From a phage, in the sequence record NC_105618.1: a stretch of DNA of 50,465 nucleotides, one strand, 5' to 3'. Below, piece by piece: positions 27,828 to 48,644 of the stretch. The notes under the pieces were generated by a model. The model was not told the DNA's origin. It searched no databases and saw only the letters and a program-made list of their open reading frames with translations. The number at the start of each line of letters is the position of its first letter. Position 1 is the stretch's first letter. The translations under genes and the position numbers were made by a program.

Positions 27828-27870
27828 AGCACTTTTTGCTAAAAACGTTTACTGTATGCCGTGTATTATA
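27828..27870 (+). promoter_or_regulatory. palindromic-motif promoter module (helicase operon)
   Basis: TAGCA-N5-TGCTA, 22 nt, TATTAT; overlaps RBS/start of divergent HTH gene. Confidence 0.5.
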
Positions 27871-27894
27871 TCGTAAACGATACAACGATTCAAA
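27866..27894 (-). promoter_or_regulatory. sigma70-like promoter of HTH regulator gene
   Basis: minus-strand TTGAAT, 17 nt spacer, TATAAT; approximate coordinates. Confidence 0.45.
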
Positions 27895-27907
27895 GGATTA
27901 AATAGCC

Positions 27908-29926
27908 GTGACAATTAACATCAAAAAGCAAATCGCATTACTTGGCGAGGACTATATAAAACGCACTCAAGAACGATTCACTGTTGGTGAGGTCGTTCCG
28001 TATCCGTACCAGGTTGTTGCTTATGCTGAGATCGCAAAACGCCTATCAAATTATGAGCATCCATTCTTTGTTAAAGCGTCAGTATCGGCGGGTAAGACCA
28101 TCATTTTTGCTATGGTTGCAAAGCAGTGTCAAAAAATGGGCTTGAAAATGCTTGTGCTGGCACGCCAGGGTGAGATTGTCGATCAGGATAGTGAAGAGAT
28201 CGACAATTTCGGAGTGACTAACTCTATATTCTCAGCGTCACTTGGAATCAAGTCTTGCTACTTCCCGATCGTGGTAGGCTCTGAGGGCACTGTTGCAAAT
28301 GGTTTAAATAATGAGTTGGCTGATTTTGTCCCTCACGTAATCGGGATAGATGAATGTCACCAGGTGGATTGGGAAGACCTTGCGCAAGCCATAGACGGAA
28401 AGGAAACAATGGAACAGATGCGGGGAGAGAAAGGGAAGATTATCATGGACGGTGATACTCCTCTGATTGGTAATGATGGAAAGCCTCTTCTTGGAACTAA
28501 GCGAAGCCAGTACACGATCGTAATCATGGAGATGATGCGTCGCTGTAAAGAGGTTCACGGGCATGACCTCAGAATATTTGGAATGACTGGATCTGAATTT
28601 AGGGGAGTTGTTCCAATCCTAGTTGAAAATCCAAAAGCATTGGGATTCTGGCGCGAGCGAGTTACTGATATCGACACTAACTATCTTATTGAGTTTGGCT
28701 CTGTCGTTCCGACGATATTCGGCTCAACAGACGGAGTTCACTACGATCTGGATAAGTTCAAGGCGTCTAGCGAGGACGGGGTTCAGGACTTTACAGAGAA
28801 AGATATGAAGGCGATGGAAGATGAGATCCTTCATGATAAATCTCTGACTCAGCGAATCATGCAAATGGTTGCCAAAAAGGCTGAAGAGCGTAACGCTGTT
28901 TTGATTACGTGCGCCGGGGTGCGTCACTGTAAAGAGGCTGCTGCGGCACTTCCTCCAGGGAGCACCTATGCAATCATCACTGGCGACACAGACACAAAAA
29001 CTCGCAAGAAGATTCTGGATGACGTAAGGGCTGGGAAGATTAAATATACCTTTCAGGTAATGGCGCTAACGACTGGCGTTAACGTTCCAAATTGGGATTT
29101 CAGTGTCATACTTCGAAAGATAGGATCGCTCACGCTGTTAATTCAACTTTTGGGTAGGGGTATGCGACTGCTTAAATCCTGGCAGGTTGCTGAAGGGATG
29201 GTTAAGCAAGACCATCTTGTATGGGATTTCGCTGGCACTATGGATGAGTTGGGGCAGCTTTATTTCGATCCGATACTTGAGCAGGCACAATTTCAGAAGC
29301 GATTCGAAAACGGCAAAGACCCGAAAACGTGTCCGAAGTGTGGTTGCGTAAATAGCTTTTACGCTCGCCGATGCGTTAACGTTATCGACGGTGAGCGATG
29401 CGATCACTTCTGGACTTCTCAGATTTGCGAGGACCAGGTTGATGAGCGAACCGGGAAAATCCTTGTTAAAGGTTGCGGTGCCGAGAATGACGTTGTCGCG
29501 AGAGTATGTCGTTGTTGTGATGTTTCTCTCGTCGATCCTAACCTGAAGTTGTCCGGTAAGGCGTACACCAAGAATGACTGGTACGAGGTAAAGAATTTTG
29601 AGGTTACGCTAACCAAAAACCAAAAGGGCATTATATACAAATACACGCTGATTAATGATGACGGTGATGAGTTCAAGGCGTATGAAAAATTCTTCCCTGA
29701 GTCAGACTCTAAGATTTGCGGTACGCTATGGAAAACAAAAGGTGTATTACCTCATGTGTCAGATCCTAAAATGCGCCGCTACTTTATCGGAATGAAGAAC
29801 GCCATAAAGATCGTGCAATACTCTCATCATATAGCGCATCCGGTACGCGTTACTCATAGACGCAACCAGAAGAAAGAGGATATTATTTCACGCAAAGATT
29901 TCGGTATGGAGGATATCCCGGAATGA
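27908..29926 (+). CDS. ATP-dependent helicase (SF2, DEAD/DEAH-like)
   Basis: Walker A SVSAGKT, DEAH-like IDECHQ, C-terminal Cys clusters. Confidence 0.8.
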   Translation: MTINIKKQIALLGEDYIKRTQERFTVGEVVPYPYQVVAYAEIAKRLSNYEHPFFVKASVSAGKTIIFAMVAKQCQKMGLKMLVLARQGEIVDQDSEEIDNFGVTNSIFSASLGIKSCYFPIVVGSEGTVANGLNNELADFVPHVIGIDECHQVDWEDLAQAIDGKETMEQMRGEKGKIIMDGDTPLIGNDGKPLLGTKRSQYTIVIMEMMRRCKEVHGHDLRIFGMTGSEFRGVVPILVENPKALGFWRERVTDIDTNYLIEFGSVVPTIFGSTDGVHYDLDKFKASSEDGVQDFTEKDMKAMEDEILHDKSLTQRIMQMVAKKAEERNAVLITCAGVRHCKEAAAALPPGSTYAIITGDTDTKTRKKILDDVRAGKIKYTFQVMALTTGVNVPNWDFSVILRKIGSLTLLIQLLGRGMRLLKSWQVAEGMVKQDHLVWDFAGTMDELGQLYFDPILEQAQFQKRFENGKDPKTCPKCGCVNSFYARRCVNVIDGERCDHFWTSQICEDQVDERTGKILVKGCGAENDVVARVCRCCDVSLVDPNLKLSGKAYTKNDWYEVKNFEVTLTKNQKGIIYKYTLINDDGDEFKAYEKFFPESDSKICGTLWKTKGVLPHVSDPKMRRYFIGMKNAIKIVQYSHHIAHPVRVTHRRNQKKEDIISRKDFGMEDIPE

Positions 29927-30339
29927 TTACAGATAAAGGCGATTACTTAGAGTTTTACGAGCGAGATCCTAGCGACACTCGAAAGGAGGACGCTCATCAA
30001 GTAGATTGCGTGTCCTGGTTGAAATACAATTTTCCTCAGCTTCTATTTTGGCACACAGTTAACGAAGGTGAAAAAACAATCACCTCGGCACTTAGGGATG
30101 AGCAGGCTGGATTGCTTAAAGGCGTATCAGACTTCGTTATCCTGATAGGTGTAAACTCACGCTACCCGTTTGCAGCTATCGAACTCAAGCGAGTTAATAA
30201 GTCCGGAAAAGGAAAGGCATCACCAGTCAGCGATAAGCAAAGGGAGTTTCTCAAAAAGGTTCGGGATCGCGGTGGATTCTCTGCCGTTGCATACGGATTT
30301 GAGCAATTCAAGCTGGCGATATACGATTTAACTAAATAG
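29923..30339 (+). CDS. VRR-NUC domain nuclease
   Basis: about 138 aa; GVSDFVIL ... IELK pattern consistent with a D...(D/E)XK core of VRR-NUC proteins. Confidence 0.6.
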   Translation: MITDKGDYLEFYERDPSDTRKEDAHQVDCVSWLKYNFPQLLFWHTVNEGEKTITSALRDEQAGLLKGVSDFVILIGVNSRYPFAAIELKRVNKSGKGKASPVSDKQREFLKKVRDRGGFSAVAYGFEQFKLAIYDLTK

Positions 30340-30379
30340 CACTTTTTGTTAAAACCGCCGGAATGGAATCTGGCATTAT
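30337..30379 (+). promoter_or_regulatory. palindromic-motif promoter module
   Basis: TAGCA-N5-TGTTA, 22 nt, CATTAT; upstream of Dam gene. Confidence 0.45.
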
Positions 30380-30406
30380 TATCTCACCGAAACGAGAGGA
30401 CTAAAA

Positions 30407-31120
30407 ATGAAAGACTTTAATGATATCGAAACAATCGACTTTGCAGAAACTGGGTGCTCATTCACTCGCGAAGCAATAGCATCAGGCGGTTATTATCAAG
30501 CATTGAAAACGCCAACCTGCAAAGAGATTTCTGGTCGTCGATACAAGGGAACAAATACGCCGGATGTTGTTCGTGATTTATGGTCAACTCCACGCGAGGT
30601 TATCGCATACCTTGAGGGTCGCTACGGAAAATATGATCTCGACGCTGCGGCAAGCGAAGAAAATAAAGTTTGCGAGAAGTTTTATTCCCAGGAAACAAAC
30701 TGCTTAAAACGTTGGTGGGGTAAAAATAAGCACGTATGGTTAAACCCTCCTTACAGTCGACCTGATATATTCGTCAAGAAAGCGATTGAGCAAATGGAGC
30801 ACAACAACCAGATCGATATTCTTTTACCTGCCGATAACTCGACTGCGTGGTTTACTGAGGCTCGACAGCACGCGGCTGAAATCATCTGGATTGAAGCTGA
30901 TTTGACTGAGGATATTGACGGCAATGAATACGCACGATCCGGTCGTCTGGCTTTCATATCAGGTGAAACTGGAAAAGCAGTAGACGGCAACAACAAAGGT
31001 TCGGTGATTTTTATTATGCGCAAACTTAAAGAAGGTGAGACGCAACAGACTCACTACATCCCAATCACAAGCATTTGCCCTTCTGTCAAAAACAAACGAG
31101 CAAAGGTGAGGAAAGTATGA
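30407..31120 (+). CDS. dam: DNA N6-adenine methyltransferase (phage Dam-type)
   Basis: DLDAAAS and NPPYS catalytic motifs. Confidence 0.8.
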   Translation: MKDFNDIETIDFAETGCSFTREAIASGGYYQALKTPTCKEISGRRYKGTNTPDVVRDLWSTPREVIAYLEGRYGKYDLDAAASEENKVCEKFYSQETNCLKRWWGKNKHVWLNPPYSRPDIFVKKAIEQMEHNNQIDILLPADNSTAWFTEARQHAAEIIWIEADLTEDIDGNEYARSGRLAFISGETGKAVDGNNKGSVIFIMRKLKEGETQQTHYIPITSICPSVKNKRAKVRKV

Positions 31121-31368
31121 TGAGCGAAAAAATGGTTCCTGTTAAATTAACTGATCAATGGTTATGGCTTCTTTATCGCGCTACGTGCTGCGAAATTATG
31201 GAGCAAAGCGGATTGACTAAGGATGTTATTGGCTGCGATCTGTGGGAGTTCACCAGTTCTCTTGATATGTCTTTCGATGAGATAAAAAATGAATATATCG
31301 AGCATTGGCCTTTGATTATCCAGAAAGACGTAGAGGAACTTAAAGCCGATACAATCTCACAGCACTAA
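31117..31368 (+). CDS. hypothetical protein
   Basis: ATGA overlap with Dam stop; in-frame ATG 31117. Confidence 0.4.
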   Translation: MMSEKMVPVKLTDQWLWLLYRATCCEIMEQSGLTKDVIGCDLWEFTSSLDMSFDEIKNEYIEHWPLIIQKDVEELKADTISQH

Positions 31369-31402
31369 TTGCTAAAAATACCCGGCGAAAGTCGGGTATA
31401 GT
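31360..31402 (+). promoter_or_regulatory. palindromic-motif promoter module
   Basis: CAGCA-N5-TGCTA, 22 nt, TATAGT inside hairpin ACCCG...CGGGT. Confidence 0.5.
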
Positions 31403-31434
31403 TATTTCATCAAAACGAAATGAGGAATCAGAAG

Positions 31435-31644
31435 ATGGCACGCATTAACGCAAACTTTTTCAATATCGCTCAACAGTCAGCAAAGATGGCTGTTCATATC
31501 ACTGACAAGAAAGGCGGCAATTTTGATTGGGATATTGCCATGAACTTCCTTAAAATGTCCTATTACCTATGCTCAGTCAAAGATGTTGAGTGTTTTATTG
31601 AAAGCGTAGAGAAACTAACCAATGCTGATAAAAAAACAAGGTAA
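31435..31644 (+). CDS. hypothetical protein
   Basis: GAGGA RBS before in-frame ATG 31435. Confidence 0.4.
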   Translation: MARINANFFNIAQQSAKMAVHITDKKGGNFDWDIAMNFLKMSYYLCSVKDVECFIESVEKLTNADKKTR

Positions 31645-31894
31645 ACGAGAGGTTTGGGAGCACGCGAAGGAATGCGGAATCTCAGACGATATAGCACTAA
31701 TAGCGAAATATTTCGATATAAAGGATGTTAGCATTATCTCAAATGGCAAGATTTCATTTATGGAAGATATGCCGAGAAAAATGCATAGAGTGCCAGCAAC
31801 TCCGTCACTTGAGTTTTATCGTGAAGAGGGAAAGAGAATTGAGCGAGAACGAAAAACAGCAAAGAACAACAAGTCTTCCAGGCTTAAACATTAA
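31622..31894 (+). CDS. hypothetical protein (overlaps next ORF)
   Basis: track ORF; overlaps 31725-32126 in another frame, cannot both be fully coding. Confidence 0.25.
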   Translation: MLIKKQGKREVWEHAKECGISDDIALIAKYFDIKDVSIISNGKISFMEDMPRKMHRVPATPSLEFYREEGKRIERERKTAKNNKSSRLKH

Positions 31895-32126
31895 CGAAGA
31901 CGATTACCAGGCCATATGGATCGGAAAGAAGAAGGTTAAGAAAATCCCTTTCTCTGATTGGTTGCCTCCTGACTTCGTTAACGCGCTGTGTACCATAGGG
32001 ATCGATCAGGAATTGCATATAGGTTATTACTCACCTGGTAGAAACAGTATGATGCTTGAGGTTGACGGAAAGCTAGTTGAGTTTAAATCGTCAGATCTAG
32101 GATTCTGGTTAAAGGCTGTGGCATGA
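31839..32126 (+). CDS. hypothetical protein (possible TTG start)
   Basis: purine-rich GAGGGAAAGAGAA before in-frame TTG 31839; alternative is ATG 31725. Confidence 0.25.
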   Translation: MSENEKQQRTTSLPGLNINEDDYQAIWIGKKKVKKIPFSDWLPPDFVNALCTIGIDQELHIGYYSPGRNSMMLEVDGKLVEFKSSDLGFWLKAVA

Positions 32127-32204
32127 ATCTTTATTTTGCTGTAGTATTAACACCGCTAATTTCATTTTCAGTAATGTATTTCATTATCATGTAAGGATTA
32201 AAAT

Positions 32205-33356
32205 ATGTCACAAGCTAAAATCACTACCGAGCAACTTATCGAAGAGCGCATGAGCGGACTTACACTTCGCGAGATTGCGGAAAAGTACGGCATGCACATT
32301 CGAACTGTTGAAGCTCGTCACGCAAAACTTGCAAAGGAAGGTCACTTCCACGGTAACGAGCATGTTGCTAAGAACGTACCGGAAGGATTCATGGTAAAAG
32401 GCACATCAACGATGATTCGCGGCGATGGGACCGAGGTAGTGCGATGGGTTAAGACCGATCAGGACCGTGAGAAGATTGCGGCAATGATGGAAGCAGCGCG
32501 TATTGCATTCTGTGAAGACTTGCCGAGAGCAAAACCAACTGAGCTACTCACATCGCAAGGGCTTACAACCGCTATTGGCAAGCTGGCACTCTACCCGGTG
32601 TTCGATCTTCACATTGGCGCGCTTGCTCACAAGCATGAATGCGGAGAGAACTACTCTACAGACGTAGCGGAAAAAGTGCTGAATGACTTCTTTAACTACG
32701 CGATCGATATTGCCCCGAACGCAGAGAAGGCTGTTCTGTTAATCGGCGGCGACTTCCTTCACTCAGACGGTCTTGATGCTGTCACCCCGGCAAGCGGTCA
32801 CGTTCTGGATCAGGATTCACGATATGCGAAATTGGTGCATGTGGCTATTCGATCGGTGCGAAGAGCTATCGACAAAATGCTGACTAAACACAAAGAGGTC
32901 GAAGTTCAGGTTATCGAAGGGAACCACGACCAGGCCGGAATGATTTGGTTGCGCGCTGCAATGGCTGCATACTATGAAGATGAGCCGCGAGTATTCGTTG
33001 ACGTTAGTCCTATGATTCTTCATAAGACCCGCTGGGGAAATACCTTGTTGGGATACACTCACGGTCACACGATGAAAAAGGCAGACACGCGACTTGCAGC
33101 GATGGCGGCAGACTTCCGTGCAGACTTCGGTGAAAGCAAATACGTGTATACTCACAGCGGACACTGGCATCATCAAACAATCACAGAGCACTCTCTCGGT
33201 ATTGATGAGGTTCACGGTCAGCTTGGGGCGAAAGACGCATACGCCGCGCGGGGCGGGTGGCGCTCATATCGCCAGGCGGCGGTAATCGTTTACGATAAAC
33301 AGTTTGGTGAAATCGGTCGATTCATCTATCGTCCAGAAATGACAGGATCGCACTAA
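32205..33356 (+). CDS. HTH domain fused to calcineurin-like metallophosphoesterase
   Basis: N-terminal LTLREIAEKYGMHIRTVEARH HTH; phosphoesterase motifs FDLHIG, GGDFLHSDG, GNHD, GHTH, GHWHH. Confidence 0.65.
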   Translation: MSQAKITTEQLIEERMSGLTLREIAEKYGMHIRTVEARHAKLAKEGHFHGNEHVAKNVPEGFMVKGTSTMIRGDGTEVVRWVKTDQDREKIAAMMEAARIAFCEDLPRAKPTELLTSQGLTTAIGKLALYPVFDLHIGALAHKHECGENYSTDVAEKVLNDFFNYAIDIAPNAEKAVLLIGGDFLHSDGLDAVTPASGHVLDQDSRYAKLVHVAIRSVRRAIDKMLTKHKEVEVQVIEGNHDQAGMIWLRAAMAAYYEDEPRVFVDVSPMILHKTRWGNTLLGYTHGHTMKKADTRLAAMAADFRADFGESKYVYTHSGHWHHQTITEHSLGIDEVHGQLGAKDAYAARGGWRSYRQAAVIVYDKQFGEIGRFIYRPEMTGSH

Positions 33357-33390
33357 TCGCTAAAAACTCCCGAAGGGATTCTGGTATAGT
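33348..33390 (+). promoter_or_regulatory. palindromic-motif promoter module (degenerate half-sites)
   Basis: TCGCA-N5-CGCTA, 22 nt, TATAGT. Confidence 0.4.
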
Positions 33391-33419
33391 GACCACATAG
33401 AAAACAAAGAGGGTATTTC

Positions 33420-33596: not shown

Positions 33597-33616
33597 CAAT
33601 ATCATTCATAACCTTA

Positions 33617-36921: not shown

Positions 36922-36948
36922 CACAATAAACTCCTTAGTTGACGGTGT

Positions 36949-36993
36949 AAATGATACACCGCCAATGGTACACGCGTTTTGCAAAAAGTGCTA
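36949..36993 (-). promoter_or_regulatory. palindromic-motif promoter module
   Basis: minus strand TAGCA-N5-TGCAA, then hairpin CGGTGT...ACACCG with TATCAT. Confidence 0.45.
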
Positions 36994-36997
36994 TTGG

Positions 36998-37414: not shown

Positions 37415-37450
37415 TGCGTTAACTCCTGATTGGTTATCTTGAATAAGGTC

Positions 37451-37496
37451 ACTTTATCAAATGACCTTACGGCAATATTAACAAATCGTGCTATTT
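37451..37496 (-). promoter_or_regulatory. palindromic-motif promoter module
   Basis: minus strand TAGCA-N5-TGTTA, 22 nt, TAAAGT in hairpin AAGGTCA...TGACCTT. Confidence 0.45.
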
Positions 37497-37961: not shown

Positions 37962-38013
37962 TGGGAGTAATATACCTTACTCCCTGTTTATTGTCTTTAG
38001 CAATTAGTGCTAT
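37962..38013 (-). promoter_or_regulatory. palindromic-motif promoter module
   Basis: minus strand TAGCA-N5-TGCTA, then hairpin GGGAGTAAG...CTCCC with TATATT. Confidence 0.45.
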
Positions 38014-39054: not shown

Positions 39055-39085
39055 GATTCTTTCCTCGCTTGCTGTTGATGGGATG

Positions 39086-39127
39086 ACTATACCAGCCATC
39101 ACGGATTCGCGTTTAGCAAAAAGTGCT
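39086..39127 (-). promoter_or_regulatory. palindromic-motif promoter module
   Basis: minus strand TAGCA-N5-TGCTA then TATAGT. Confidence 0.45.
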
Positions 39128-39299
39128 ATTCGATGATCTCTTTCTCAACAATCGTTGTGTAGTCGTACATGCTCTTTCCGGCGCGAATCTGTTCCTTCAT
39201 TCTGTTCTCGTACTGCTTTGCCTTCTTTTCATCAAGGTGAACAGTCTCTACATATTCACCCTCATATTGAACGCCGCCCATAACGATATATACGATCAT
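39123..39299 (-). CDS. hypothetical small protein (58 aa)
   Basis: ATGA overlap with upstream stop; not in track. Confidence 0.25.
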
Positions 39300-39676: not shown

Positions 39677-39707
39677 CTCGTCATTCCTCTGATTGGTTGA
39701 TGTGTTA

Positions 39708-39750
39708 AATATACCCCGATTACCTTCGGGGCGTTTAGCAATTCGTGCTA
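39708..39750 (-). promoter_or_regulatory. palindromic-motif promoter module
   Basis: minus strand TAGCA-N5-TGCTA, 22 nt, TATATT in hairpin CCCCGAAGG...CGGGG. Confidence 0.45.
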
Positions 39751-40086
39751 TTAAGCGATATCGAACTCAGCGGCATATGCTTTCTTGAAGCCAGCTTCAC
39801 GCATGGTGCGCTTGCTGATTTTGCGCGGGAATTTGTACTGGCTGTTGGGTTTAACCCACCAAAAACAGGCAGTTTCACGAACGATTTCATATTTACCGTA
39901 ACGGGTGAAGATGTCACGTTCAGCGTCAGGCTGATAAATACAGGTCAGGAATTTAGCTGCATTTTCTTCAGTTTTGATTTCTTCCCATACGAAGGAATCC
40001 ATACCGTTAACTTTGCAAGCTACCATGATGTACTCAACGCCGTTTTCGATTTTGATGATTTCGTTACCGCGATTTTCGTATTTCAT
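39751..40086 (-). CDS. hypothetical protein
   Basis: track ORF with upstream promoter module. Confidence 0.45.
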   Translation of the reverse strand: MKYENRGNEIIKIENGVEYIMVACKVNGMDSFVWEEIKTEENAAKFLTCIYQPDAERDIFTRYGKYEIVRETACFWWVKPNSQYKFPRKISKRTMREAGFKKAYAAEFDIA

Positions 40087-40124
40087 TTTCCTGCCCCTGA
40101 TGTGTATCTCGTTTCGATGAGGTA

Positions 40125-40167
40125 ATTATGCCAAATCACACCGATCGAGTTTTAACAAAAAGTGCTA
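40125..40167 (-). promoter_or_regulatory. palindromic-motif promoter module
   Basis: minus strand TAGCA-N5-TGTTA, 22 nt, CATAAT; overlaps 3' end of methyltransferase ORF. Confidence 0.45.
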
Positions 40168-40865
40168 TTTGCAATTGCTTTGAAAAATCCACGTGGCGAC
40201 AGCGATCGTATCAACTTCGTTTTGGCAGACTTGCCGCCCAGCTTGTTATGCTGCGCAGAGTACCCGTCAGGCAGGCTTACTGGCTTTCTCTCCGGCATGA
40301 CAAAATCGTCCGAGGTCCAAAGACACGTCTTTTTCGGATAAGCATCGCGCGGCGCAATATACATCGGGAACCAGGGGTGCGAGTCATTCTCAGGAAGGTA
40401 GCCGCCATACTCCCAGGGATTGAATGAGTGATCTGGTTTTCTCCAGGCAGATGACAGAACGCTAACCGGATTCTCAATGATGTAAGTCACGCCCAGGGCA
40501 TCGCCAATATTCGCAGCAATCCGGGCGGTGGCAACAGCCTTCTCCTGGAATAACGGATCACGCTCACGCTTACTTGCAAAGTGCGCAGCGCCACTAACAG
40601 CTAGGTCAGTGCATGGAGGAAAGGCCATGATTAAATCCGGCTTGCCATACACACCAGCGATAGCATCACGTTCGAACTTCTCATCAATGAAGACGTTCAC
40701 ATACTCAATGTTCGGATGCTCTACCCTGGCATTGTACTTTGCATAATCTCCGTGATCTGCCCCGTCAAAGTTGAATCACATCACCTTATGACCTCGCTTT
40801 GCCAGTTCATGACCAGCAAGGCCGGAACCGTCGAATAATGACCAGATTAATTTCACTTGTTGCAT
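40152..40865 (-). pseudogene. DNA cytosine-5 methyltransferase-like gene interrupted by in-frame TGA
   Basis: N-terminal 29 codons (LFDGSGLAG, motif I-like) end at in-frame TGA about 40776-40778; downstream frame continues with AFPPC (motif IV-like) and IIENP (motif VI-like). Confidence 0.5.
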
Positions 40866-41014: not shown

Positions 41015-41048
41015 TTCTGCTTCCTCTACTGATTGGTTGATGACCAGA

Positions 41049-41092
41049 ACTATACCCTGCCAACATGGATAAGTCGTTAGCAAAAAATGCTA
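41049..41092 (-). promoter_or_regulatory. palindromic-motif promoter module
   Basis: minus strand TAGCA-TTTTT-TGCTA, about 23 nt, TATAGT. Confidence 0.45.
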
Positions 41093-41701
41093 TTCCAATA
41101 ATTGCTCATTATTCCATCAATAGTGGAATAGTTGGAATAATTGCGATCCCGATTGATCTCGAATGATGAAACGTGATTATTGCATGGTGTGCAACAGTTG
41201 GTTGATTTGTTGCTGAGAATGCAATGATTGTGAGAGGGAGGATTTAGTGTTACCCGGTTCGCCTGGTAGTCATCTCCATTTTTAGCAAAAAGTGCTATCG
41301 ATTACACTTTAACTTGTCACGACTGTAATATTTGTCTAGAATCGCCATTGTGACAAAATTACACACTGTGACGCCTCTAAATATACATATAGATATATGT
41401 ATCTATATAATATATATAGTGTTTTTTTTATTTATATATATAGATAATTATATTGTAATAGCTGTGTATAGTTGTCTTACATTGTCTAGCGTACTGTTGG
41501 CATATTTCTATCTGCATGTTTATATATACAGTAATTTTTTGTGAGCTATATATTTCTATAGTGACTCTATACAGCTAGACAAATGTTACACAGCTTAAAA
41601 TTGGCTCGCAGGCGTTGACATATCTGCATTGCGCTGTCACAATGGCAATTGTTGACGCGTTATGACACCATTTACACACGAATAGACAAAGAGGTTATAT
41701 T
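41084..41701. promoter_or_regulatory. AT-rich divergent control region with repeats
   Basis: about 618 bp without ORFs of 60 aa or more; shares TCTATATAATATATATAG and GCTGTGTA..AGTTGTCT blocks with 21325-21851; GGAATA(A/G)TTG repeats. Confidence 0.6.
41283..41297. promoter_or_regulatory. isolated palindromic motif in control region
   Basis: TAGCA-AAAAG-TGCTA with no -10-like hexamer at the usual spacing. Confidence 0.35.
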
Positions 41702-42217: not shown

Positions 42218-42232
42218 GCACTGAACGGTAAA

Positions 42233-42275
42233 TAGCACTTTTTGTTAAAACCGGATCGGGATGGCTTGGTATAGT
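42233..42275 (+). promoter_or_regulatory. palindromic-motif promoter module
   Basis: TAGCA-N5-TGTTA, 22 nt, TATAGT in hairpin GGGAT...ATCCC. Confidence 0.5.
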
Positions 42276-42306
42276 TATCCCATCGGCAACGAATTAGGAA
42301 ACGAAG

Positions 42307-42501: not shown

Positions 42502-42503
42502 TC

Positions 42504-42971
42504 ATGACGACTATCACCGTATTTCTGGCTAAAGATGAATTGGACGGCGAAATGTCATTCTTCGCGTTCGAGCATAAAACCGGATCGCACTGGCACACGT
42601 ACACTCATTACACGGTCATCGCAATTGAGGCTTACGACGGCGATTTCACTGACAAGCTGAGTAATTTTATTGAAGCGGTTAAGGCTGGCGACGGCTGCGA
42701 GTGGAAAGAAGATCATGAAGTTATGCGAATGTATGAGATGATTGATCCGGTTCGCCTTGAGTCTTTCGAGCTTGGTTCTGGCGTGACCATTAAGGTGAGA
42801 AAGTCGGGTGAGTTATTGCCAGGAATGCGTGTGCTGACTGGTTACTCAGGACGTAAGGTATGGCGCACTGTATCCAAGATTCGCCAGCGATCGGCAACAT
42901 GCTACAGCGTATTCTTTGAAGATGGTTGGAATATGATGTCAGGAAGTGAAGTGAAGTATCTCACCAAATAG
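42504..42971 (+). CDS. hypothetical protein
   Basis: track ORF, coupled to upstream gene. Confidence 0.45.
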   Translation: MTTITVFLAKDELDGEMSFFAFEHKTGSHWHTYTHYTVIAIEAYDGDFTDKLSNFIEAVKAGDGCEWKEDHEVMRMYEMIDPVRLESFELGSGVTIKVRKSGELLPGMRVLTGYSGRKVWRTVSKIRQRSATCYSVFFEDGWNMMSGSEVKYLTK

Positions 42972-43011
42972 CACGAATTGTTAAAACAGGATCGGGGTAT
43001 CTTGCTATAGT
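42969..43011 (+). promoter_or_regulatory. palindromic-motif promoter module
   Basis: TAGCA-N5-TGTTA, 22 nt, TATAGT in hairpin GGGGTA...TACCCC. Confidence 0.5.
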
Positions 43012-43049
43012 TACCCCATTGAAACGAGATACCAATCAGAGGAATTACA

Positions 43050-43313: not shown

Positions 43314-43319
43314 ATAATT

Positions 43320-43547
43320 ATGCCACGTTACAGCAACCTAACTCAACTAACCCGCGTCAACGGGCACATGATCCCGGCAAAATCCACTCACTACGCAATG
43401 GGCGCAAAACACGGAGTCTATTTCAAGTGGCGCGGTCAATGGAACTTCACGGCGGTGAGTAATTTCTACATGCGCGTTCCGGGCGATGACCCGCAATCGG
43501 TAGTAGAAAACTCAATCGGTGACAACAAGATCGAGGTGATGAAATGA
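43320..43547 (+). CDS. hypothetical protein
   Basis: track ORF. Confidence 0.4.
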   Translation: MPRYSNLTQLTRVNGHMIPAKSTHYAMGAKHGVYFKWRGQWNFTAVSNFYMRVPGDDPQSVVENSIGDNKIEVMK

Positions 43548-43654
43548 ACTTCAATACAATTGCCCTATGGTCTGCCGTCTGGTTCTTCTGCATGGGTCAT
43601 GCCATTGTTGGGATCGTAATCATGTTACTACTGTGTGCCGGAGCTTTTGAATGA
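43544..43654 (+). CDS. hydrophobic micropeptide (36 aa, one TM helix)
   Basis: MNFNTIALWSAVWFFCMGHAIVGIVIMLLLCAGAFE; ATGA overlaps with both neighbours. Confidence 0.3.
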   Translation: MNFNTIALWSAVWFFCMGHAIVGIVIMLLLCAGAFE

Positions 43655-43824
43655 TGCGCATTCTAATTTGCATGATGGCGGCAGTCGCCATAACTATCCT
43701 GGTTGTGTCCGGCTGCGGAGAGGTAAAACAGCGATGCCATGAAACCGGGAACCAGGTTACTACGTTCGTGATGGTCGGCAACGTATTGCTACCAATCACA
43801 TCAAATGAGATCACTTGCGAATAG
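43651..43824 (+). CDS. mini-lipoprotein (57 aa)
   Basis: signal peptide MMRILICMMAAVAITILVVSGC with lipobox VSGC; mature about 35 aa with 3 Cys; not in track. Confidence 0.4.
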   Translation: MMRILICMMAAVAITILVVSGCGEVKQRCHETGNQVTTFVMVGNVLLPITSNEITCE

Positions 43825-43833
43825 GATTTAACA

Positions 43834-44025
43834 ATGGCTGATTTTATGCACCAAATGATTGCAGTATTCAAAGGCAGTGATGATGAGGAAGTTAAAGAGT
43901 GCTTTACCGTTGACAAGCCTTATAACGCGTCACTAACCAGCTTCGGGAATATCTCATTGCTTGATGATAATGGCGATCCCTGGATATTCGACGAAGACAC
44001 TGATTGCTTCGAGATTAAAGAATAG
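43834..44025 (+). CDS. small acidic protein
   Basis: 63 aa, Asp/Glu-rich. Confidence 0.35.
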   Translation: MADFMHQMIAVFKGSDDEEVKECFTVDKPYNASLTSFGNISLLDDNGDPWIFDEDTDCFEIKE

Positions 44026-44066
44026 CACTTTTTGTTAAAACTCAATATTGGGGTTGCGATATAGTA
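44024..44066 (+). promoter_or_regulatory. palindromic-motif promoter module
   Basis: TAGCA-N5-TGTTA, 22 nt, TATAGT. Confidence 0.5.
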
Positions 44067-44096
44067 ACTCCATCGACAACGAACGAGGACGAGAAC

Positions 44097-44585
44097 ATGA
44101 AAATCAAATTACTTTGCACTGGCGGTTACAAAGGCTTTACTCGCGACCTGGAAGCGGACCCTATCGTGGTTGACGCTGTGAAGTGTGATGATAGCCTGGG
44201 CGGCTACCGCGTTAATGTTGACGACCTGGTTAAAGCTGGCGTGTACGATCTGGATTATGGACTTTCGGTTAGCCCGGTAGTCGGCCCGGCAGATTTCAAC
44301 GAGAAGGACGGAACGATGTTCTTTTTCGATCGGGAAGTCCAGGCAAACATCAAGCCTCGCAAGGTTCGACTTCTCAACAATGGCGGTTATCCTATGCGAC
44401 CAGGTTATGAGAATCGCACGTTCCCGGTGATTGTTGACTTTGAAGAAATCACCGCGCACTTAGCTTATATCAACGGTGAACAGCTTAATGCTGTTGGATT
44501 CGTGGGAGGCATGAATCAAGAGGCGCTATGCTTCTTCCACTGTAAAGCCGAGCCGTTCGATATTGAGTGTGAGTTAGTATACTAA
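44097..44585 (+). CDS. hypothetical protein
   Basis: track ORF; N-terminus MKIKLLCTGGYKG resembles repeated small-domain family. Confidence 0.45.
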   Translation: MKIKLLCTGGYKGFTRDLEADPIVVDAVKCDDSLGGYRVNVDDLVKAGVYDLDYGLSVSPVVGPADFNEKDGTMFFFDREVQANIKPRKVRLLNNGGYPMRPGYENRTFPVIVDFEEITAHLAYINGEQLNAVGFVGGMNQEALCFFHCKAEPFDIECELVY

Positions 44586-44626
44586 GCACGAATTGTTAAA
44601 AGGGGATTTGGCCTGACTGGTATAAT
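44584..44626 (+). promoter_or_regulatory. palindromic-motif promoter module
   Basis: AAGCA-N5-TGTTA, 22 nt, TATAAT in hairpin GGGGAT...ATCCCC. Confidence 0.5.
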
Positions 44627-44657
44627 CCCCTACATCAACCACTAAGAGGAAGTCATT

Positions 44658-45164
44658 ATGTTGAGATTAGAAGATGTCAAATTCCCGATCAAATTTATCA
44701 GCTTTGGTTTCGGTGAAATTACGTTCATCAATGAAGGCAGGGGTACATGGGCCACTGAGGAAGTATCTCAGCTTAAGCTGGAATGGTTTATTGACAGGCA
44801 CAACGAAGTGAATAAAGAAAATTCACCAAATAAGGACTACCACTACATTATGAGTGACGGCCGGGATTCGTACAGCATGTATGATAATTGGAAGTTGGAA
44901 GGTTCAATATTCAACGGTGTAAAACCAGAAATCAAGCCGACGCTACAATGCACTCAGATCGAGAACATGCCATTGAGCGCTACGCTAAAAGGTGTCCAGC
45001 TTGATAGCGAATCCTGGCTTGAAATTACCGCCACACCGAAAACTATTGAGGCGCACGACGATATCATCACGCTGTTGCTGCATCACGGCGGTTTCAAGTA
45101 TAAGACGTTATCAGGTGAAATCAGCATTAAGCGCGGAACGCTTGTCCGCTACGAGGTGAAATAG
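44658..45164 (+). CDS. hypothetical protein
   Basis: track ORF, GAGGAAG RBS. Confidence 0.45.
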   Translation: MLRLEDVKFPIKFISFGFGEITFINEGRGTWATEEVSQLKLEWFIDRHNEVNKENSPNKDYHYIMSDGRDSYSMYDNWKLEGSIFNGVKPEIKPTLQCTQIENMPLSATLKGVQLDSESWLEITATPKTIEAHDDIITLLLHHGGFKYKTLSGEISIKRGTLVRYEVK

Positions 45165-45228
45165 TGAGCAATTGGCATAACGAACATGTAATGCAGTTTT
45201 ACCGTAATCGCATCAAGAAAGTTTTGAA

Positions 45229-45271
45229 TAGCACGAATTGCTAAACCTTCCGCAAGGCCATTTGATATAGT
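45229..45271 (+). promoter_or_regulatory. palindromic-motif promoter module
   Basis: TAGCA-N5-TGCTA, 22 nt, TGaTATAGT in hairpin AGGCCA...TGGCCT. Confidence 0.5.
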
Positions 45272-45310
45272 GGCCTTATTGAAGCAGGGCAACCAATCAG
45301 AGGAATCATC

Positions 45311-45598
45311 ATGAGCAAGAATCATAAGTTAAAAATTGCCCCGGTCCATTTCATCGGTGTAATGAACGGCACCAAAACGGCAGAGTTCCGCATCAATGAC
45401 CGCAACTTCCAGGTTGGTGATATCCTTGAGCTACGAGAGTTCGATCGCGATGAGTTTACCGGGTGGGAAGTTCACGCTAGGGTATCCGATGTTACAGACG
45501 TGACTCCTTACATCGATCGCGGGTATGACGAGCAACAGTGCGACTTCACGCAGTACGTGATGTTATCAATCAAACCTTACAGATGGGTTAGACCATGA
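45311..45598 (+). CDS. hypothetical protein (possible ASCH/PUA-like fold)
   Basis: 95 aa; pattern AEFRINDRNFQVGDILELRE; assignment by pattern only. Confidence 0.35.
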   Translation: MSKNHKLKIAPVHFIGVMNGTKTAEFRINDRNFQVGDILELREFDRDEFTGWEVHARVSDVTDVTPYIDRGYDEQQCDFTQYVMLSIKPYRWVRP

Positions 45599-46233
45599 AA
45601 TTTGAGTGCGTATCAAGTAGCGGATCTGGTTTCAAGTGTGGTAAGGTCTACGAAGGCGCTAGCGTCAATGACAATAGCTTCGTTATCACGGATGAGCGAG
45701 GTAGAAATGTTAACGTTGTCCGGCGTCACGAATACCAGGAAATATTCCTGCCGTATTGCGGTAGCTCAAAATATATCTTCCATCGAATCGTAGATGGTGT
45801 TAAATTTAAAGACGTAATCGAAGCAATCAACCAACTGCATAATAAAGAGGTAAAATTTATGAAATTCGAATGTATCAGTGATAACACCAAAAAATTTACC
45901 GTTGGCAAAATCTACGACGTGCCTACTGAGCACGCAAAGCACACTGTAGCGCTGACCGACGACACGGGCCGCCACCGCATTGCAACCGTAACGCACAACG
46001 GTGAAGGTCTTCGCTGGAATAGCGGCGGCACTAAGTTCGCAACTTTCGGCAAAAAGCGCAAGCGTACTTTTTGCGTAAATGGCAAGGTTGCAGCAAACAA
46101 GATCCACAACGTCAAGCCGTCGGAAGTTGACCGTAAGCCAGCACTGAAGTTTGAAGAGAAAGCGGATTTGTCTGGCCTAGCTATCGCTCTTGTTCTCCTG
46201 GTCGCTTCGATTTCGCTGATGTTCATCATGTAA
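45595..46233 (+). CDS. membrane-anchored protein with internal tandem duplication
   Basis: two MKFEC(V/I)S...GK(V/I)Y repeats then C-terminal TM helix LSGLAIALVLLVASISLMFIM. Confidence 0.45.
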   Translation: MKFECVSSSGSGFKCGKVYEGASVNDNSFVITDERGRNVNVVRRHEYQEIFLPYCGSSKYIFHRIVDGVKFKDVIEAINQLHNKEVKFMKFECISDNTKKFTVGKIYDVPTEHAKHTVALTDDTGRHRIATVTHNGEGLRWNSGGTKFATFGKKRKRTFCVNGKVAANKIHNVKPSEVDRKPALKFEEKADLSGLAIALVLLVASISLMFIM

Positions 46234-46240
46234 TTTTAAC

Positions 46241-46274
46241 GGGGAATCGGCTCTGAGCGGTTCCCCTTTCTTTT
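46241..46274 (+). terminator. intrinsic terminator
   Basis: GGGGAA...TTCCCC hairpin then TTTCTTTT. Confidence 0.55.
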
Positions 46275-46286
46275 GGAGAAAACACT

Positions 46287-46397
46287 ATGCCAGACTTTTC
46301 CAACTGGAATAACGAGCCGCCATCATTTCATGAGTTGCTATTCTGCCTCCTGGTCCTGACATTATCTCTTAAGGGTGTTTTATGGCTACTATCATGA
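46287..46397 (+). CDS. possible hydrophobic micropeptide (36 aa)
   Basis: GGAG RBS; MPDFSNWNNEPPSFHELLFCLLVLTLSLKGVLWLLS; approximate coordinates; competes with track ORF 46382-46600. Confidence 0.2.
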   Translation: MPDFSNWNNEPPSFHELLFCLLVLTLSLKGVLWLLS

Positions 46398-46584
46398 CAG
46401 CAGAAGATGCAGCGCTTGACGCAGTGGAAGGAATGCGCCCAAATACCTCCAGAATCGCACACTACTACAAATCTGAGGTGTCGGCAGTGCAATTGGTCCA
46501 CGAAATTTTAAGGCTCCCACAAGTCGATTCAGCGCGCGTGGTGACGTGCTTAAAAAATTATTTTTGCATCACTATTAAAACGAA

Positions 46585-46627
46585 TAGCACGAATTGCTAA
46601 AACCTATCAAGGGGAATGCGCTATGAT
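46585..46627 (+). promoter_or_regulatory. palindromic-motif promoter module
   Basis: TAGCA-N5-TGCTA, 22 nt, TATGAT in hairpin GGGGAAT...ATTCCCC. Confidence 0.5.
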
Positions 46628-46657
46628 TCCCCTACACCAAAAAACGAGGGAACACTC

Positions 46658-47104
46658 ATGAAACATTTGATTTGCATTGAAACACCTAACGATGAATACA
46701 CCCTGCACGGCATCGGAATGTTCAAAGGTCACTACATGACAGCAAGTATTTATGATGCGCGTCGCGGCGATGGCGATCTGATGATTACCTCAAAAGAGGT
46801 TAATCCGTACATCATGCAGAATCTTGGAAATAACGAATATATGGCCTACGGCTGCAACGCGGTGTATAAGCATATCAAGATCCGCAAGCGTGTCGTGCGA
46901 TCATTCAAGAAAATTGCAATGAAACACTGGAAGATGAGCAAGAAAGATGCCGGACATTGGGCGCGTGACGTTGCATATTCATACTTCTACCGTAACGGCG
47001 AATCCTGCTACTTTCTGATCGATGAACTTATGGAAAACTACGGTGGCGACTTCAGTCAGGGTAGCTTTGATGACTGGGCCAACTATGAGATCAGTTGCTG
47101 GTAA
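46658..47104 (+). CDS. hypothetical protein
   Basis: GAGGGA RBS before in-frame ATG 46658 (track start 46616 lies inside promoter module). Confidence 0.45.
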   Translation: MKHLICIETPNDEYTLHGIGMFKGHYMTASIYDARRGDGDLMITSKEVNPYIMQNLGNNEYMAYGCNAVYKHIKIRKRVVRSFKKIAMKHWKMSKKDAGHWARDVAYSYFYRNGESCYFLIDELMENYGGDFSQGSFDDWANYEISCW

Positions 47105-47147
47105 TAGCACGAATTGCTAAAACTTGCTCAAGGGTATTTGATAGAAT
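47105..47147 (+). promoter_or_regulatory. palindromic-motif promoter module
   Basis: TAGCA-N5-TGCTA, 22 nt, TAGAAT in hairpin. Confidence 0.5.
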
Positions 47148-47186
47148 GCCCTTCGTTGAGTTAAGCAACCAATCAGAGGAATTACT

Positions 47187-47390
47187 ATGAAAACTATTAA
47201 CGGAATGAGCAACGAAACGAGAACGCAGATCGTTAACATGCTAATCGGTATGGCTGACGATATTCAGAATAGCCAGGTCGTTATTGATTCATGCAATCAG
47301 ACTCGCGAGAGTAAATTTGAATCATCCGGCTACAAAATTGTTGAAGAAGAATTAACCATCAAAATCATTCGCGTACAGGAGAAAGCATAA
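47187..47390 (+). CDS. hypothetical protein
   Basis: track ORF; CCAATCAGAGGA leader. Confidence 0.4.
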   Translation: MKTINGMSNETRTQIVNMLIGMADDIQNSQVVIDSCNQTRESKFESSGYKIVEEELTIKIIRVQEKA

Positions 47391-47923
47391 TGGATAAAAT
47401 CACAATTTGGGGCCAGACAATCAACCTGTTTCTCGGCCCGCGCCGCGTAGCAATCTTTGACTTTGATGGTACACTTAGTGACGGATCCGGTAGACTTCAT
47501 TTGCTGCCGACAAAAGATTTGCACTTGACTGAAAGCTGGTCCGAGTTTAACCTCGCGGCAATATTTGACAACCCTATCCAAAGCACGATCGATGTGATGA
47601 ACTCTATGTTTGCCGCTGGTTATCATGTGATCATTTTAACCGGGCGAAGTGATGAGGTGCGTTACGCATCTGAGTTGTGGCTTAAGCATCACGGCGCTCG
47701 ATATGATTACCTGATTATGCGACCACACACCGATAACCGGAAAGACACAGTAATGAAAGAAGAGGCGGTGCGCGCGATCGGCATTGATAACATTCTGGCG
47801 GCCTGGGATGACTCACCGCAAATTATTCCATTATTCCGCTCACTTGGAATAACCACTTACGCTGTAGTTGACTATGGCGATAAAGTTCACGATCATTTAA
47901 AATCTCACGGGGTAGATGAATGA
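47390..47923 (+). CDS. HAD-family phosphatase (polynucleotide 3'-phosphatase-like)
   Basis: HAD motif I DFDGT; VIILTGRS and AWDDSPQ motifs resemble the T4 Pnk phosphatase domain. Confidence 0.65.
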   Translation: MDKITIWGQTINLFLGPRRVAIFDFDGTLSDGSGRLHLLPTKDLHLTESWSEFNLAAIFDNPIQSTIDVMNSMFAAGYHVIILTGRSDEVRYASELWLKHHGARYDYLIMRPHTDNRKDTVMKEEAVRAIGIDNILAAWDDSPQIIPLFRSLGITTYAVVDYGDKVHDHLKSHGVDE

Positions 47924-48030
47924 ACCTGTACGAATTTATTGCAGCGCATCCGGTATTAACGGTTATCATTCTGCTAATCATCAATCACACCATCATCAAT
48001 GTGGCAAAATTATTTTTAGGGAGATACTGA
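47920..48030 (+). CDS. hydrophobic micropeptide (36 aa)
   Basis: MNLYEFIAAHPVLTVIILLIINHTIINVAKLFLGRY; ATGA overlap with phosphatase stop, ends 1 nt before kinase ATG. Confidence 0.25.
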   Translation: MNLYEFIAAHPVLTVIILLIINHTIINVAKLFLGRY

Positions 48031-48031
48031 C

Positions 48032-48604
48032 ATGAAAACAGCTATCATTTTAAACGGTGCGCCTGGTGCGGGAAAAGACACTATAGGGTGCATCCTGGCT
48101 GACACTTACGATCATGTAGCGCTACGCAGCTTTAAAGCTCCAATGTTTGAGATTGCCCGAGCAATCTTGGGTGAGACTAATTTCGAGTATTTCATGTTCT
48201 TGTATGAGGACCGTCGCTATAAAGAAGAGCCAGCATCAATCCTGAACGGTAAAAGCCCACGCCAGTTTATGATCTGGATTAGCGAGGAGGTCATCAAGCC
48301 GCAGTTCGGAAATCGCTTCTTCGGTATGCGAGCGGAAAGCAAGGTGAAAGAGTCGCACTCCCTTTCGGTATTTACTGACGGTGGATTCAAAGATGAGATC
48401 CTACAAATGATTGAAGGTGATATCCAGGTTAAGCTATGTCGAATCCATCGCAACGGTTGCAGCTTTGATAACGACAGCCGAGACTATATCTATCTTGACG
48501 ATATGATCGGGGTCAACGGTTATCAGGAATGTGACTTCTTTTCTGTCGAAGGCCATCCAGAAATTACCGCTCAGCACATAGCCGCCACGTTCATCAACAA
48601 GTAG
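48032..48604 (+). CDS. P-loop kinase (polynucleotide kinase or dNMP kinase-like)
   Basis: Walker A GAPGAGKDT. Confidence 0.6.
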   Translation: MKTAIILNGAPGAGKDTIGCILADTYDHVALRSFKAPMFEIARAILGETNFEYFMFLYEDRRYKEEPASILNGKSPRQFMIWISEEVIKPQFGNRFFGMRAESKVKESHSLSVFTDGGFKDEILQMIEGDIQVKLCRIHRNGCSFDNDSRDYIYLDDMIGVNGYQECDFFSVEGHPEITAQHIAATFINK

Positions 48605-48644
48605 CACGAATTGCTAAAACGTCGGTGGGGTGATTTGATATAGT
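48602..48644 (+). promoter_or_regulatory. palindromic-motif promoter module
   Basis: TAGCA-N5-TGCTA, 22 nt, TGaTATAGT. Confidence 0.5.

Follow-up and report, generated by a model that had tools for sequence, protein, structure and literature searches.

The sequence record NC_105618.1, analysed here over a stretch of 50,465 nucleotides (the window), is that of a T1-like phage (Tunavirus, Drexlerviridae), collinear with T1 and ∼92% identical to Escherichia phage vB_EcoS_SA12KD. Genes for replication and lysis (helicase, VRR-NUC, Dam methylase, exonuclease, holin and endolysin) occupy the region from 27.8 to 48.7 kb, and the small early genes form two divergent arrays that flank a 600-bp intergenic region at 41.1–41.7 kb. 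A repeat with the core TAGCA-N5-TGCTA (TAGCANNNNNTGCTA) recurs throughout this region, followed at a fixed distance by a -10-like hexamer, and an initial reading made from the letters of this DNA (the sequence-only reading) had suggested that the two might define a promoter class specific to the phage. We find that the repeat matches the marbox, the site of the host activators MarA, SoxS, Rob and RamA, and that it is placed relative to the hexamer as the marbox is in the Escherichia coli micF promoter.

The repeat is far more frequent than chance would allow. Over the whole window, the exact core occurs 11 times compared to 0.03 expected, and 24 copies are found (1.3 expected) if one mismatch is permitted; none of the shuffled sequences attained 11 exact or 24 near-exact copies. 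Between 27.8 and 48.7 kb, 12 copies are oriented on the plus strand (at 27827, 30337, 31360, 33348, 42233, 42969, 44023, 44584, 45229, 46585, 47105 and 48602) and 8 on the minus strand (at 36979, 37479, 37998, 39114, 39736, 40153, 41078 and 41283), and all 20 are co-oriented with the next gene, which bears out the earlier count of at least 12 plus and at least 8 minus copies pointing at genes. A hexamer of the form YAnnnT begins 22 nt past TGCTA in 17 of the 20 copies, the distance that the sequence-only reading had given, and 23 nt past it in two; the copy at 41283 has no hexamer. The variants at 22 nt include TATAGT, TATAAT, TAGAAT, TATGAT, TATTAT, CATAAT and others.

The motif and spacing search of related phages that the sequence-only reading had asked for shows the spacing to be conserved. 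Among 400 unique repeat copies from ∼25 related genomes, drawn from 120 motif-bearing viral contig stretches, 295 have the hexamer at exactly 22 nt and a further 34 have it at 21 or 23 nt, compared to a background of 2.5%. Each Drexlerviridae genome has 12–26 modules consisting of repeat and hexamer, 80–95% of them with exact spacing, and ∼40 unrelated contigs carry repeat and hexamer once, as chance singletons. Complete modules are also found in the window beyond 27.8–48.7 kb (those beginning at 22917, 27327 and 10404 in Table 1).

Comparison of the modules, with positions numbered from a predicted start 7 nt past the hexamer, revealed a composite organization. The repeat, aAATAGCAC-N4-TGYTAAAAC, extends from -52 to -31 and is followed by free sequence from -30 to -16; a G at -14 is present in 87% of modules and TG at -15/-14 in 48%, constituting an extended -10 together with the hexamer at -12 to -7 (TATAGT or similar, with A-11 and T-7 conserved). 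Positions -6 to -1 are free yet C-rich, with C-1 in 71% and A+1 in 85% of modules. The leader holds a semi-conserved AUCGAaAACGAG and then a Shine-Dalgarno sequence, with the start codon 27–40 nt from the predicted start, and with leaders of this length the repeat starts ∼77–90 nt ahead of the ATG.

We found no -35 in the modules; the best match to TTGACA at spacings of 16–18 bp averages 2.4 of 6 positions, in agreement with the sequence-only reading, which had noted the lack of a conventional -35 at 17 nt. We regard the modules as very probably sigma-70 promoters. Across 30–50 kb, canonical -35/-10 promoters show no enrichment (34 versus 38 expected), and strong sites of this type occur only in the intergenic region at 41.3–41.7 kb (41314, TTGTCA-17-TAGAAT; 41615, TTGACA-17-CACAAT with TG), where they are probably immediate-early promoters. 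Both the lack of enrichment and the clustering of the good sites agree with the surprise of the authors of the 2024 re-annotation of phage TLS at only three sigma-70-like promoters (PMC11447400).

The identity of the repeat emerged from its comparison with marbox definitions that were derived independently of any phage. The published MarA consensus is GCAHWWWWTGYYAAA (PMC6900184), and the window has 24 sites with at most one mismatch to it (13 of them perfect) compared to 1.5 expected; these sites are the phage repeats. Similarly, GCACGAATTGCTAAA and GCACTTTTTGTTAAA agree at 15 of 15 positions with the definition gcannwwntgnnaaa (PMC12052159). On a weight matrix built from 87 Salmonella chromatin immunoprecipitation sequencing (ChIP-seq) sites bound by MarA, SoxS, Rob and RamA (PMC10268841 Table 1), the phage repeats score 15.6–18.2 bits, in the top tier of the real sites, for which the leave-one-out median is 10.7, the 90th percentile 16.0 and the maximum 17.9 bits. 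There are 29 matches of at least 12 bits in the window versus 3.7 in shuffled sequence, and a ChIP site to which RamA and SoxS bind has exactly the sequence of the repeat at 36977. Judging from these matches, the repeat probably functions as a marbox-type site, the asymmetric target of monomeric AraC/XylS activators with a pair of helix-turn-helix (HTH) motifs, MarA, SoxS, Rob and RamA. As a separate observation, RamA and Rob ChIP-seq peaks are found inside Salmonella prophage genes (gpP; the cII region) (PMC10268841 Table 1), which provides at least one instance of marbox regulators binding to phage DNA in vivo.

The repeat has no more than a partial dyad. Opposite the invariant C-44 the mirror position is a T, the invariant G-47 is matched at -37 by either C or T (half-site TGYTA), and A-tracts lie on both flanks on the same strand. 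The asymmetric conservation and strict orientation indicate that the repeat is not a symmetric operator for a dimer; here the sequence-only reading, which had proposed a symmetric site for a dimeric HTH protein, gives way to the marbox match.

The placement of the repeat is also that of a marbox. In class II marbox promoters, a forward-oriented site overlaps the -35 region and clusters near -41, and a recognisable -35 is lacking (PMC10268841, PMC8811837), with a mean of 1.9 matches to the -35 consensus in the Salmonella promoters (PMC10268841), and cryo-electron microscopy of RamA, Rob or SoxS at micF shows sigma region 4 displaced by the activator (PMC8811837). E. coli micF reads ACAGCACTGAATGTCAAAAC, 18 bp, TAGAAT, 7 nt, +1. 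The gap between the 15-mer and the hexamer is 20 nt in both micF and the phage modules (equivalent to TGCTA plus 22), as in 74% of the 400 copies, and the modules share the orientation and the trailing AAAAC of micF, with GCAC distal and AAA proximal to the -10 in all hexamer-bearing modules. Indeed, micF passes the module scan that we used on the phages. The centre of the phage marbox falls at -40 if the start is taken 7 nt past the hexamer, and the class II activator geometry put forward by the sequence-only reading therefore holds, with an element centred at about -40/-41 from the predicted start and a sigma-70-type -10 at a fixed distance. Sites located with the matrix have a 20-nt gap in nfo and a 19-nt gap in fumC, while the upstream stretches fetched for sodA and inaA had no forward matrix match of 6 bits or more. 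Both nfo and fumC were reportedly assigned to class II by Martin et al. in 1999.

Resemblances of the repeat to other promoter elements did not hold up. TAGCACG..TTGC resembles the sigma-54 promoter TGGCACG-N4-TTGC, but TAGCACGAATTGC corresponds to AG-N8-GC, 2 bp short of the GG-N10-GC consensus (-24/-12) of that class, and a -10 is present. TTGCTAAA resembles the T4 MotA box TTTGCTTTA, but its distance from the -10 is one helical turn too long, and none of the 30 open reading frames (ORFs) scanned matched the MotA/AsiA family. The likeness to an AraC I1 half-site, TAGCATTTTT, is only superficial.

The repeat has been described before. The genome announcement of phage Stevie reports 16 copies of VWATAGCAYKWWTTGYTAAAAV, with the role given as unknown, and cites a comparable 20-copy repeat of T1 from Roberts et al. 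2004 (PMC4319613); the copies are annotated as repeat_region features in the Stevie sequence record. The TLS re-annotation gives the consensus aaATAGCACnnnTTGnTAAAA, located ∼76 nt before start codons and divided into A, T and G subgroups, and its authors suggest stoperators, enhancer sites or UP elements, naming the function an open question for T1-like phages; the accessible part of that paper makes no mention of MarA, SoxS, AraC, marbox or hexamer (PMC11447400). The 21–22 bp intergenic direct repeat of T1, Stevie and TLS is the same element as ours, likewise co-oriented with transcription; the difference is that the accessible text of those papers has no fixed -10, extended -10, marbox or hairpins. 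The view that this architecture was undescribed thus has to be dropped, the repeat being published for these phages and the promoter type being the host class II marbox promoter exemplified by micF. With the repeat known and the promoter type known, it is the connection between them that appears to be new within the searchable literature.

The explanation that we favour, and consider somewhat better than an even prospect on the sequence comparisons, is that the modules are sigma-70 class II marbox promoters whose activator is encoded by the host. Each copy of the repeat would be a promoter for host RNA polymerase, with a core promoter made up of the extended -10 (T-15 G-14 n TATAGT) without a -35 and a predicted start at the conserved C-1/A+1. 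The 20-bp repeat ATAGCAC-N4-TGYTAAAAC, at about -50 to -31, would act as a near-optimal forward marbox, placed base for base like that of micF, on which an AraC/XylS-type monomer would set one HTH on GCAC (-47 to -44) and the other on TAAA (-36 to -33). The most economical candidate activators are Rob, which is constitutive, and MarA and SoxS under stress, plus RamA in Klebsiella, Salmonella and Citrobacter. As in the structures of Rob, SoxS and RamA at micF, the activator would replace the missing -35 contact and recruit RNA polymerase. If essentially all genes for early functions, replication and lysis are transcribed from the ∼20 promoters, placing marboxes on these non-structural genes would tie the phage programme to the host mar/sox/rob stress regulon.

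That the activator may come from the host is suggested by what the phages do and do not encode. No AraC-family protein was found by Pfam among 20 ORFs of 111–383 aa from the early and replication region, nor by PHROGs among ten ORFs of 86–171 aa, six of which lay beyond the Pfam set. A tblastn search of four phage genomes with MarA and SoxS returned only noise; the one weak match from it, IME_EC2 gp22 (E = 0.006), shows no likeness to AraC in Pfam. Among the phage proteins, a gp23-like protein with a single HTH (phrog_2856), which is annotated as a transcriptional regulator in T1, is the sole obvious candidate for DNA binding; no PDB relative was found, and its single-sequence AlphaFold model is unusable (predicted local distance difference test score 39).

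A further comparison is with two phages outside the Drexlerviridae, Enterobacteria phage IME_EC2 (Murrayvirus) and Escherichia phage C130_2 (Hungariovirus), which belong to podovirus-like genera, combine P22-like virion genes with a T1-like replication module and carry identical 20-mers at identical spacing. A gp23 homologue is absent from both complete genomes (tblastn, E up to 1), and the small HTH protein differs in each of the three lineages, those of the window phage, IME_EC2 and C130_2. Both have nothing but replication enzymes in common with the window phage; for IME_EC2 the overlap is limited to primase, helicase, VRR-NUC, two methylases, exonuclease VIII and Erf. The proteins around the modules have drifted to 30–47% identity while the 20-mer has stayed identical. 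From the identity of the 20-mer despite this drift, and from the lack of a shared phage regulator, we infer that a conserved host protein is the best explanation for the binder.

A second feature, new here, is that many modules build a hairpin from the positions that the promoter leaves free. In these modules the spacer (-24 to -16) is complementary to the discriminator (-9 to -1), with the loop TGnTAT. The complementarity is specific to each module (17.5 for self versus 12.3 across modules, with 0 of 5000 permutations as high), and 295 modules display an antidiagonal excess of Watson-Crick pairs of 13–20 points, that is, covariation. All six core pairs are formed in 49 modules compared to 2.6 expected, and in a 91-sequence alignment this helix outscores every shuffle and every slid register. 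The positions that are not Watson-Crick are G.T in 34 cases and A.C in 4, indicating that the hairpin belongs to the sense strand. An N4-type hairpin promoter or a cruciform was rejected on the same count, which implicates a single strand, and the phage does not encode an RNA polymerase. Since the predicted start lies at the 3' edge of the hairpin, the hairpin must form in RNA that is read in from the upstream gene.

Folding energies range from -9 to -22 kcal/mol, with z-scores to -6, and the hairpins fall into two classes. The arms of class A surround the -10 and are followed by AUCGAAACGA, with no U-tract. Class B hairpins are tight G+C stems in the spacer that abut the U-rich -10 (31378-31399, ∼33366-33376 and ∼39707-39725); the one at 31378 passes a terminator scan, and the U-rich hexamer and discriminator could double as the terminator U-tract, such that terminator and promoter overlap. 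Other sequence records annotate module hairpins as terminators, and in IME_EC2 the hairpin sits in the 5' leader and not around the -10. The arms use exactly the positions that the promoter leaves free, and we read them as having a 3'-end function rather than a role in promoter recognition; most likely, although this assignment is tentative, the hairpin is overprinted on the promoter and serves the upstream message by stabilising its 3' end or as a weak insulator.

The same observations bear on other explanations of the modules. If the phage encodes its own activator, be it a dimeric HTH protein such as the gp23-like one or a small early protein that has escaped recognition, the modules would be phage-specific middle promoters, as the sequence-only reading proposed. 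The core TAGCA-N5-TGCTA does have partial dyad symmetry, the conserved HTH protein phrog_2856 is encoded adjoining the module at 27826, and dozens of early ORFs have no known function. Nonetheless, we consider such an activator unlikely, because conservation of the repeat is asymmetric and strictly oriented, because IME_EC2 and C130_2 retain the 20-mer and its spacing with neither a gp23 homologue nor any other small protein in common, and because convergence would need to have led the phage protein to precisely the host marbox, in the same orientation and at the spacing found in micF. It is distinctly improbable that the modules need no activator and that the repeat is an intrinsic RNA polymerase element, UP-like (bound by the C-terminal domain of the alpha subunit) or a displaced -35 surrogate. 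The near-invariant GCAC and TG, at ∼2 bits, are unlike A/T-rich UP elements (-40 to -60), and TTGCTA, 22 nt from the -10, is 5 bp too far away for sigma region 4; these features count for more, in our view, than the A-tracts at -52 to -50 and -35 to -32, the ability of an extended -10 to function without a -35, or the inclusion of UP elements among the proposals of the TLS authors (PMC11447400).

Negative action of the sites, either as stoperator-like roadblocks or as decoys that titrate MarA, SoxS and Rob off host stress genes as phage DNA replicates, is slightly less probable again. Stoperators were suggested by the Stevie and TLS authors, and marboxes do occupy repressing positions at 50432 (over the -10 and leader) and 6673 (in a promoter spacer); furthermore, twenty sites in each of hundreds of genome copies would be expected to outnumber the activator pool. 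However, fixed spacing and forward orientation to the -10 in ∼75% of copies are the signature of activation, and T1 is virulent, with no known repressor. We assign the smallest chance to an RNA element, in which the repeat (as a 5-bp hairpin) and the downstream hairpin would be a processing, stabilising or antitermination signal and the hexamer a loop motif rather than a -10. Sense-strand-specific covariation with G.U pairs is what such an element predicts, as is variation at TGYTA that preserves G-C or G.U pairing, and T1-like genomes are rich in terminators. Yet the hairpin is present in only about a quarter to a half of the modules, in two different registers, with its arms confined to positions that the promoter leaves free, and matches no Rfam family, whereas the conserved features, namely the repeat, G-14, the A-11/T-7 hexamer and the CA start, are those of a promoter in DNA.

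Several considerations count against a host marbox activator or limit what can be concluded about it. Roberts et al. 2004 may already tie the T1 repeat to promoters ('perhaps enhancers', as quoted in PMC11447400), and the searchable literature contains no binding, start-site or expression data for T1-like phages. The copies are one evolutionary draw, so that their match to the consensus is a single, very improbable, test of coincidence. Modules are lacking in Vibrio and Pseudoalteromonas relatives and also in Klebsiella phage BUCT541, which has a similar replication module; the element thus follows lineage as well as host, and the host-range comparison does not discriminate. T1 grows very fast even though unstressed cells keep Rob largely sequestered and contain little MarA or SoxS, and classical T1-resistant mutants are not known to map to genes other than fhuA and tonB. 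Given the extended -10, the promoters may work without an activator, and dependence on one may therefore be partial. Finally, an unrecognised phage protein with a novel fold could have marbox specificity; the ORF scans covered part of the small early ORFs.

Table 1. Marbox modules and related features of the window (bits, score on the ChIP-seq matrix; d, nt from the 15-mer to the hexamer; extended -10 sequences are given with their TG)
Coordinates	Strand	Marbox	-10	Bits	d	Gene or remark
27826..27876	+	GCACTTTTTGCTAAA	TATTAT	17.3	20	helicase-gene module; predicted start 27876
30336..30386	+	GCACTTTTTGTTAAA	TGgCATTAT	15.7	20	Dam methylase-gene module
31359..31409	+	GCACTAATTGCTAAA	TATAGT	18.2		tight class B spacer hairpin 31378-31399, terminator-like
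33347..33397	+	GCACTAATCGCTAAA	TGgTATAGT	15.0	20	ahead of small gene upstream of holin
36944..36994	-	GCACTTTTTGCAAAA	TATCAT	16.5		module of 523-543 aa helicase-like gene; 15-mer identical to Salmonella RamA/SoxS ChIP site
37444..37494	-	GCACGATTTGTTAAT	TGaTAAAGT			12-bp hairpin around -10, z = -5.5
37962..38013	-	GCACTAATTGCTAAA	TATATT	18.2		hexamer one nt farther off
39079..39129	-	GCACTTTTTGCTAAA	TGgTATAGT	17.3	20	module
39701..39751	-	GCACGAATTGCTAAA	TATATT	17.2		class B spacer hairpin
40118..40168	-	GCACTTTTTGTTAAA	TGgCATAAT	15.7		DNA methylase-gene module
41042..41093	-	GCATTTTTTGCTAAC	TATAGT			first leftward module; hexamer at 23 nt
42232..42282	+	GCACTTTTTGTTAAA	TGgTATAGT			hairpin around -10
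42968..43018	+	GCACGAATTGTTAAA	TGcTATAGT			module
44022..44072	+	GCACTTTTTGTTAAA	TATAGT			hairpin with two G.U pairs
44583..44633	+	GCACGAATTGTTAAA	TGgTATAAT			module
45228..45278	+	GCACGAATTGCTAAA	TGaTATAGT			9-bp hairpin, loop TGATAT
46584..46634	+	GCACGAATTGCTAAA	TATGAT			module
47104..47154	+	GCACGAATTGCTAAA	TGaTAGAAT			hexamer is that of micF
48601..48651	+	GCACGAATTGCTAAA	TGaTATAGT			15-bp hairpin, -22 kcal/mol
22917..22966	+	GCACAAATAGCTAAA	TGtTATAAT	16.6	19	Erf-like-gene module
27327..27377	-	GCATTTTTAGTTAAA	TAACAT	12.8		weaker primase-gene module
41281..41298	-					consensus marbox without hexamer, within large intergenic region holding the only good -35/-10 promoters
50432..50449	+		TGgTAAAAT			marbox overlapping extended -10 and leader, ∼5 nt before ribosome site of first late gene
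10404..10454	-		TGaTACGAT			complete marbox and module, antisense in late (tail) region toward terminator of upstream gene
6673..6690	-					reverse-oriented consensus marbox inside spacer of plus-strand TTGACG-16-TATTAT (TGc) late promoter-like site
27361..27813	-					gp23-like HTH protein gene; phrog_2856, weak P22_Cro match under Pfam cut-off

A terminator at 50392-50413 precedes the TGgTAAAAT -10 just ahead of the first late gene, which the marbox (core 50435-50449) overlaps, and T1 is arranged alike before terS (T1 8365); the position of the marbox at 50432 suits repression by the same factor, not activation. A canonical terminator hairpin directly follows the 6673 site, and T1 has kept this arrangement ahead of its major head gene (T1 15069). 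The 10404 module, which may be the promoter of an antisense RNA, is likewise conserved in T1 (18833, TAAGAT). Around the 45228 module, a 75-nt stretch by itself finds matches in hundreds of Klebsiella and Salmonella phages.

Apart from the repeat, the octamer CCAATCAG has 16 copies in the window compared to 1.6 expected. Nine of these are in 5' leaders just ahead of the Shine-Dalgarno sequence (aACCAATCAGaGGAa), for example at 45293-45300, 47169-47176, 43032-43039 and 10458-10465, and six are antisense to long genes (1331-1338, 3782-3789, 15589-15596, 19706-19713, 28463-28470 and 31954-31961). Some host labels in public records look doubtful: twenty entries named 'Campylobacter phage' prove to be T1-like, 'Stutzerimonas phage STP9' and coliphage C130_2 share 95.6% identity, and the gene order of 'Acinetobacter phage AB4P2' is permuted in an odd way.

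A wider proposal, which we put forward tentatively and at rather less than even odds, is that T1-like phages, and at least two genera with unrelated capsids that share the replication module, have brought the transcription of almost all their early, replication and lysis genes under the mar/sox/rob (and, where present, ram) regulon by means of ∼20 super-consensus class II marboxes. If this is true, phage expression would rise under bile, salicylate, oxidant and antibiotic stress and in clinical multidrug-resistant marR, ramR and soxR mutants, and replicating phage DNA would titrate the activators, thereby shutting down the host response. With some marboxes in repressing positions at late promoters, the titration could also time the switch from early to late expression. 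Common and therapeutically used phages, the Tunavirus of E. coli, the Webervirus of Klebsiella and relatives in Salmonella and Citrobacter, would then be reading host regulators of antibiotic stress, multidrug-resistance mutations (marR, ramR, soxR) and gut signals such as bile would be linked to phage productivity, and the modules would supply compact, activator-responsive promoters. The function of the repeat has been an open question for T1-like phages since 2004, restated in 2024 for TLS, and a marbox in micF geometry makes that question directly testable.

Among known systems, the class II marbox promoters of Enterobacteriaceae, micF, nfo and fumC, are the closest, with an asymmetric marbox of 15–20 bp lying forward over the -35 region, centred at about -41, and no -35. 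The phage sites differ in lying close to the consensus, unlike the degenerate sites of the host (median 10.7 bits), in being present in ∼20 copies within 22 kb of a virulent genome, and in being overprinted in many cases with an RNA hairpin. The middle promoters of T4 similarly join a good -10 without a -35 to an upstream box containing TGCT, and the activator replaces contacts of sigma region 4 (MotA box with sigma appropriation by AsiA), but the centre of the MotA box falls at -30 and its gap to the -10 is ∼12 bp, compared to 22 nt for the phage repeat, and the T4 activator is phage-encoded. Class II CRP promoters of the galP1 type have an activator at -41.5 on an extended -10 without a -35 (a gal class II structure is cited in PMC8811837); in that case, a CRP dimer occupies a symmetric 22-bp site, while the phage repeat is asymmetric and oriented. 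In their many short intergenic units of promoter plus stem-loop, the modules are like the promoter-early stem-loop (PeSL) cassettes of T4-type phages, which Arbiol et al. in 2010 are said to have described as a strong early promoter and a stem-loop between small early genes. PeSL cassettes, however, have an ordinary -35/-10 and separate terminator hairpins, whereas in the phage modules the hairpin is interwoven with the promoter, to which an activator site is joined.

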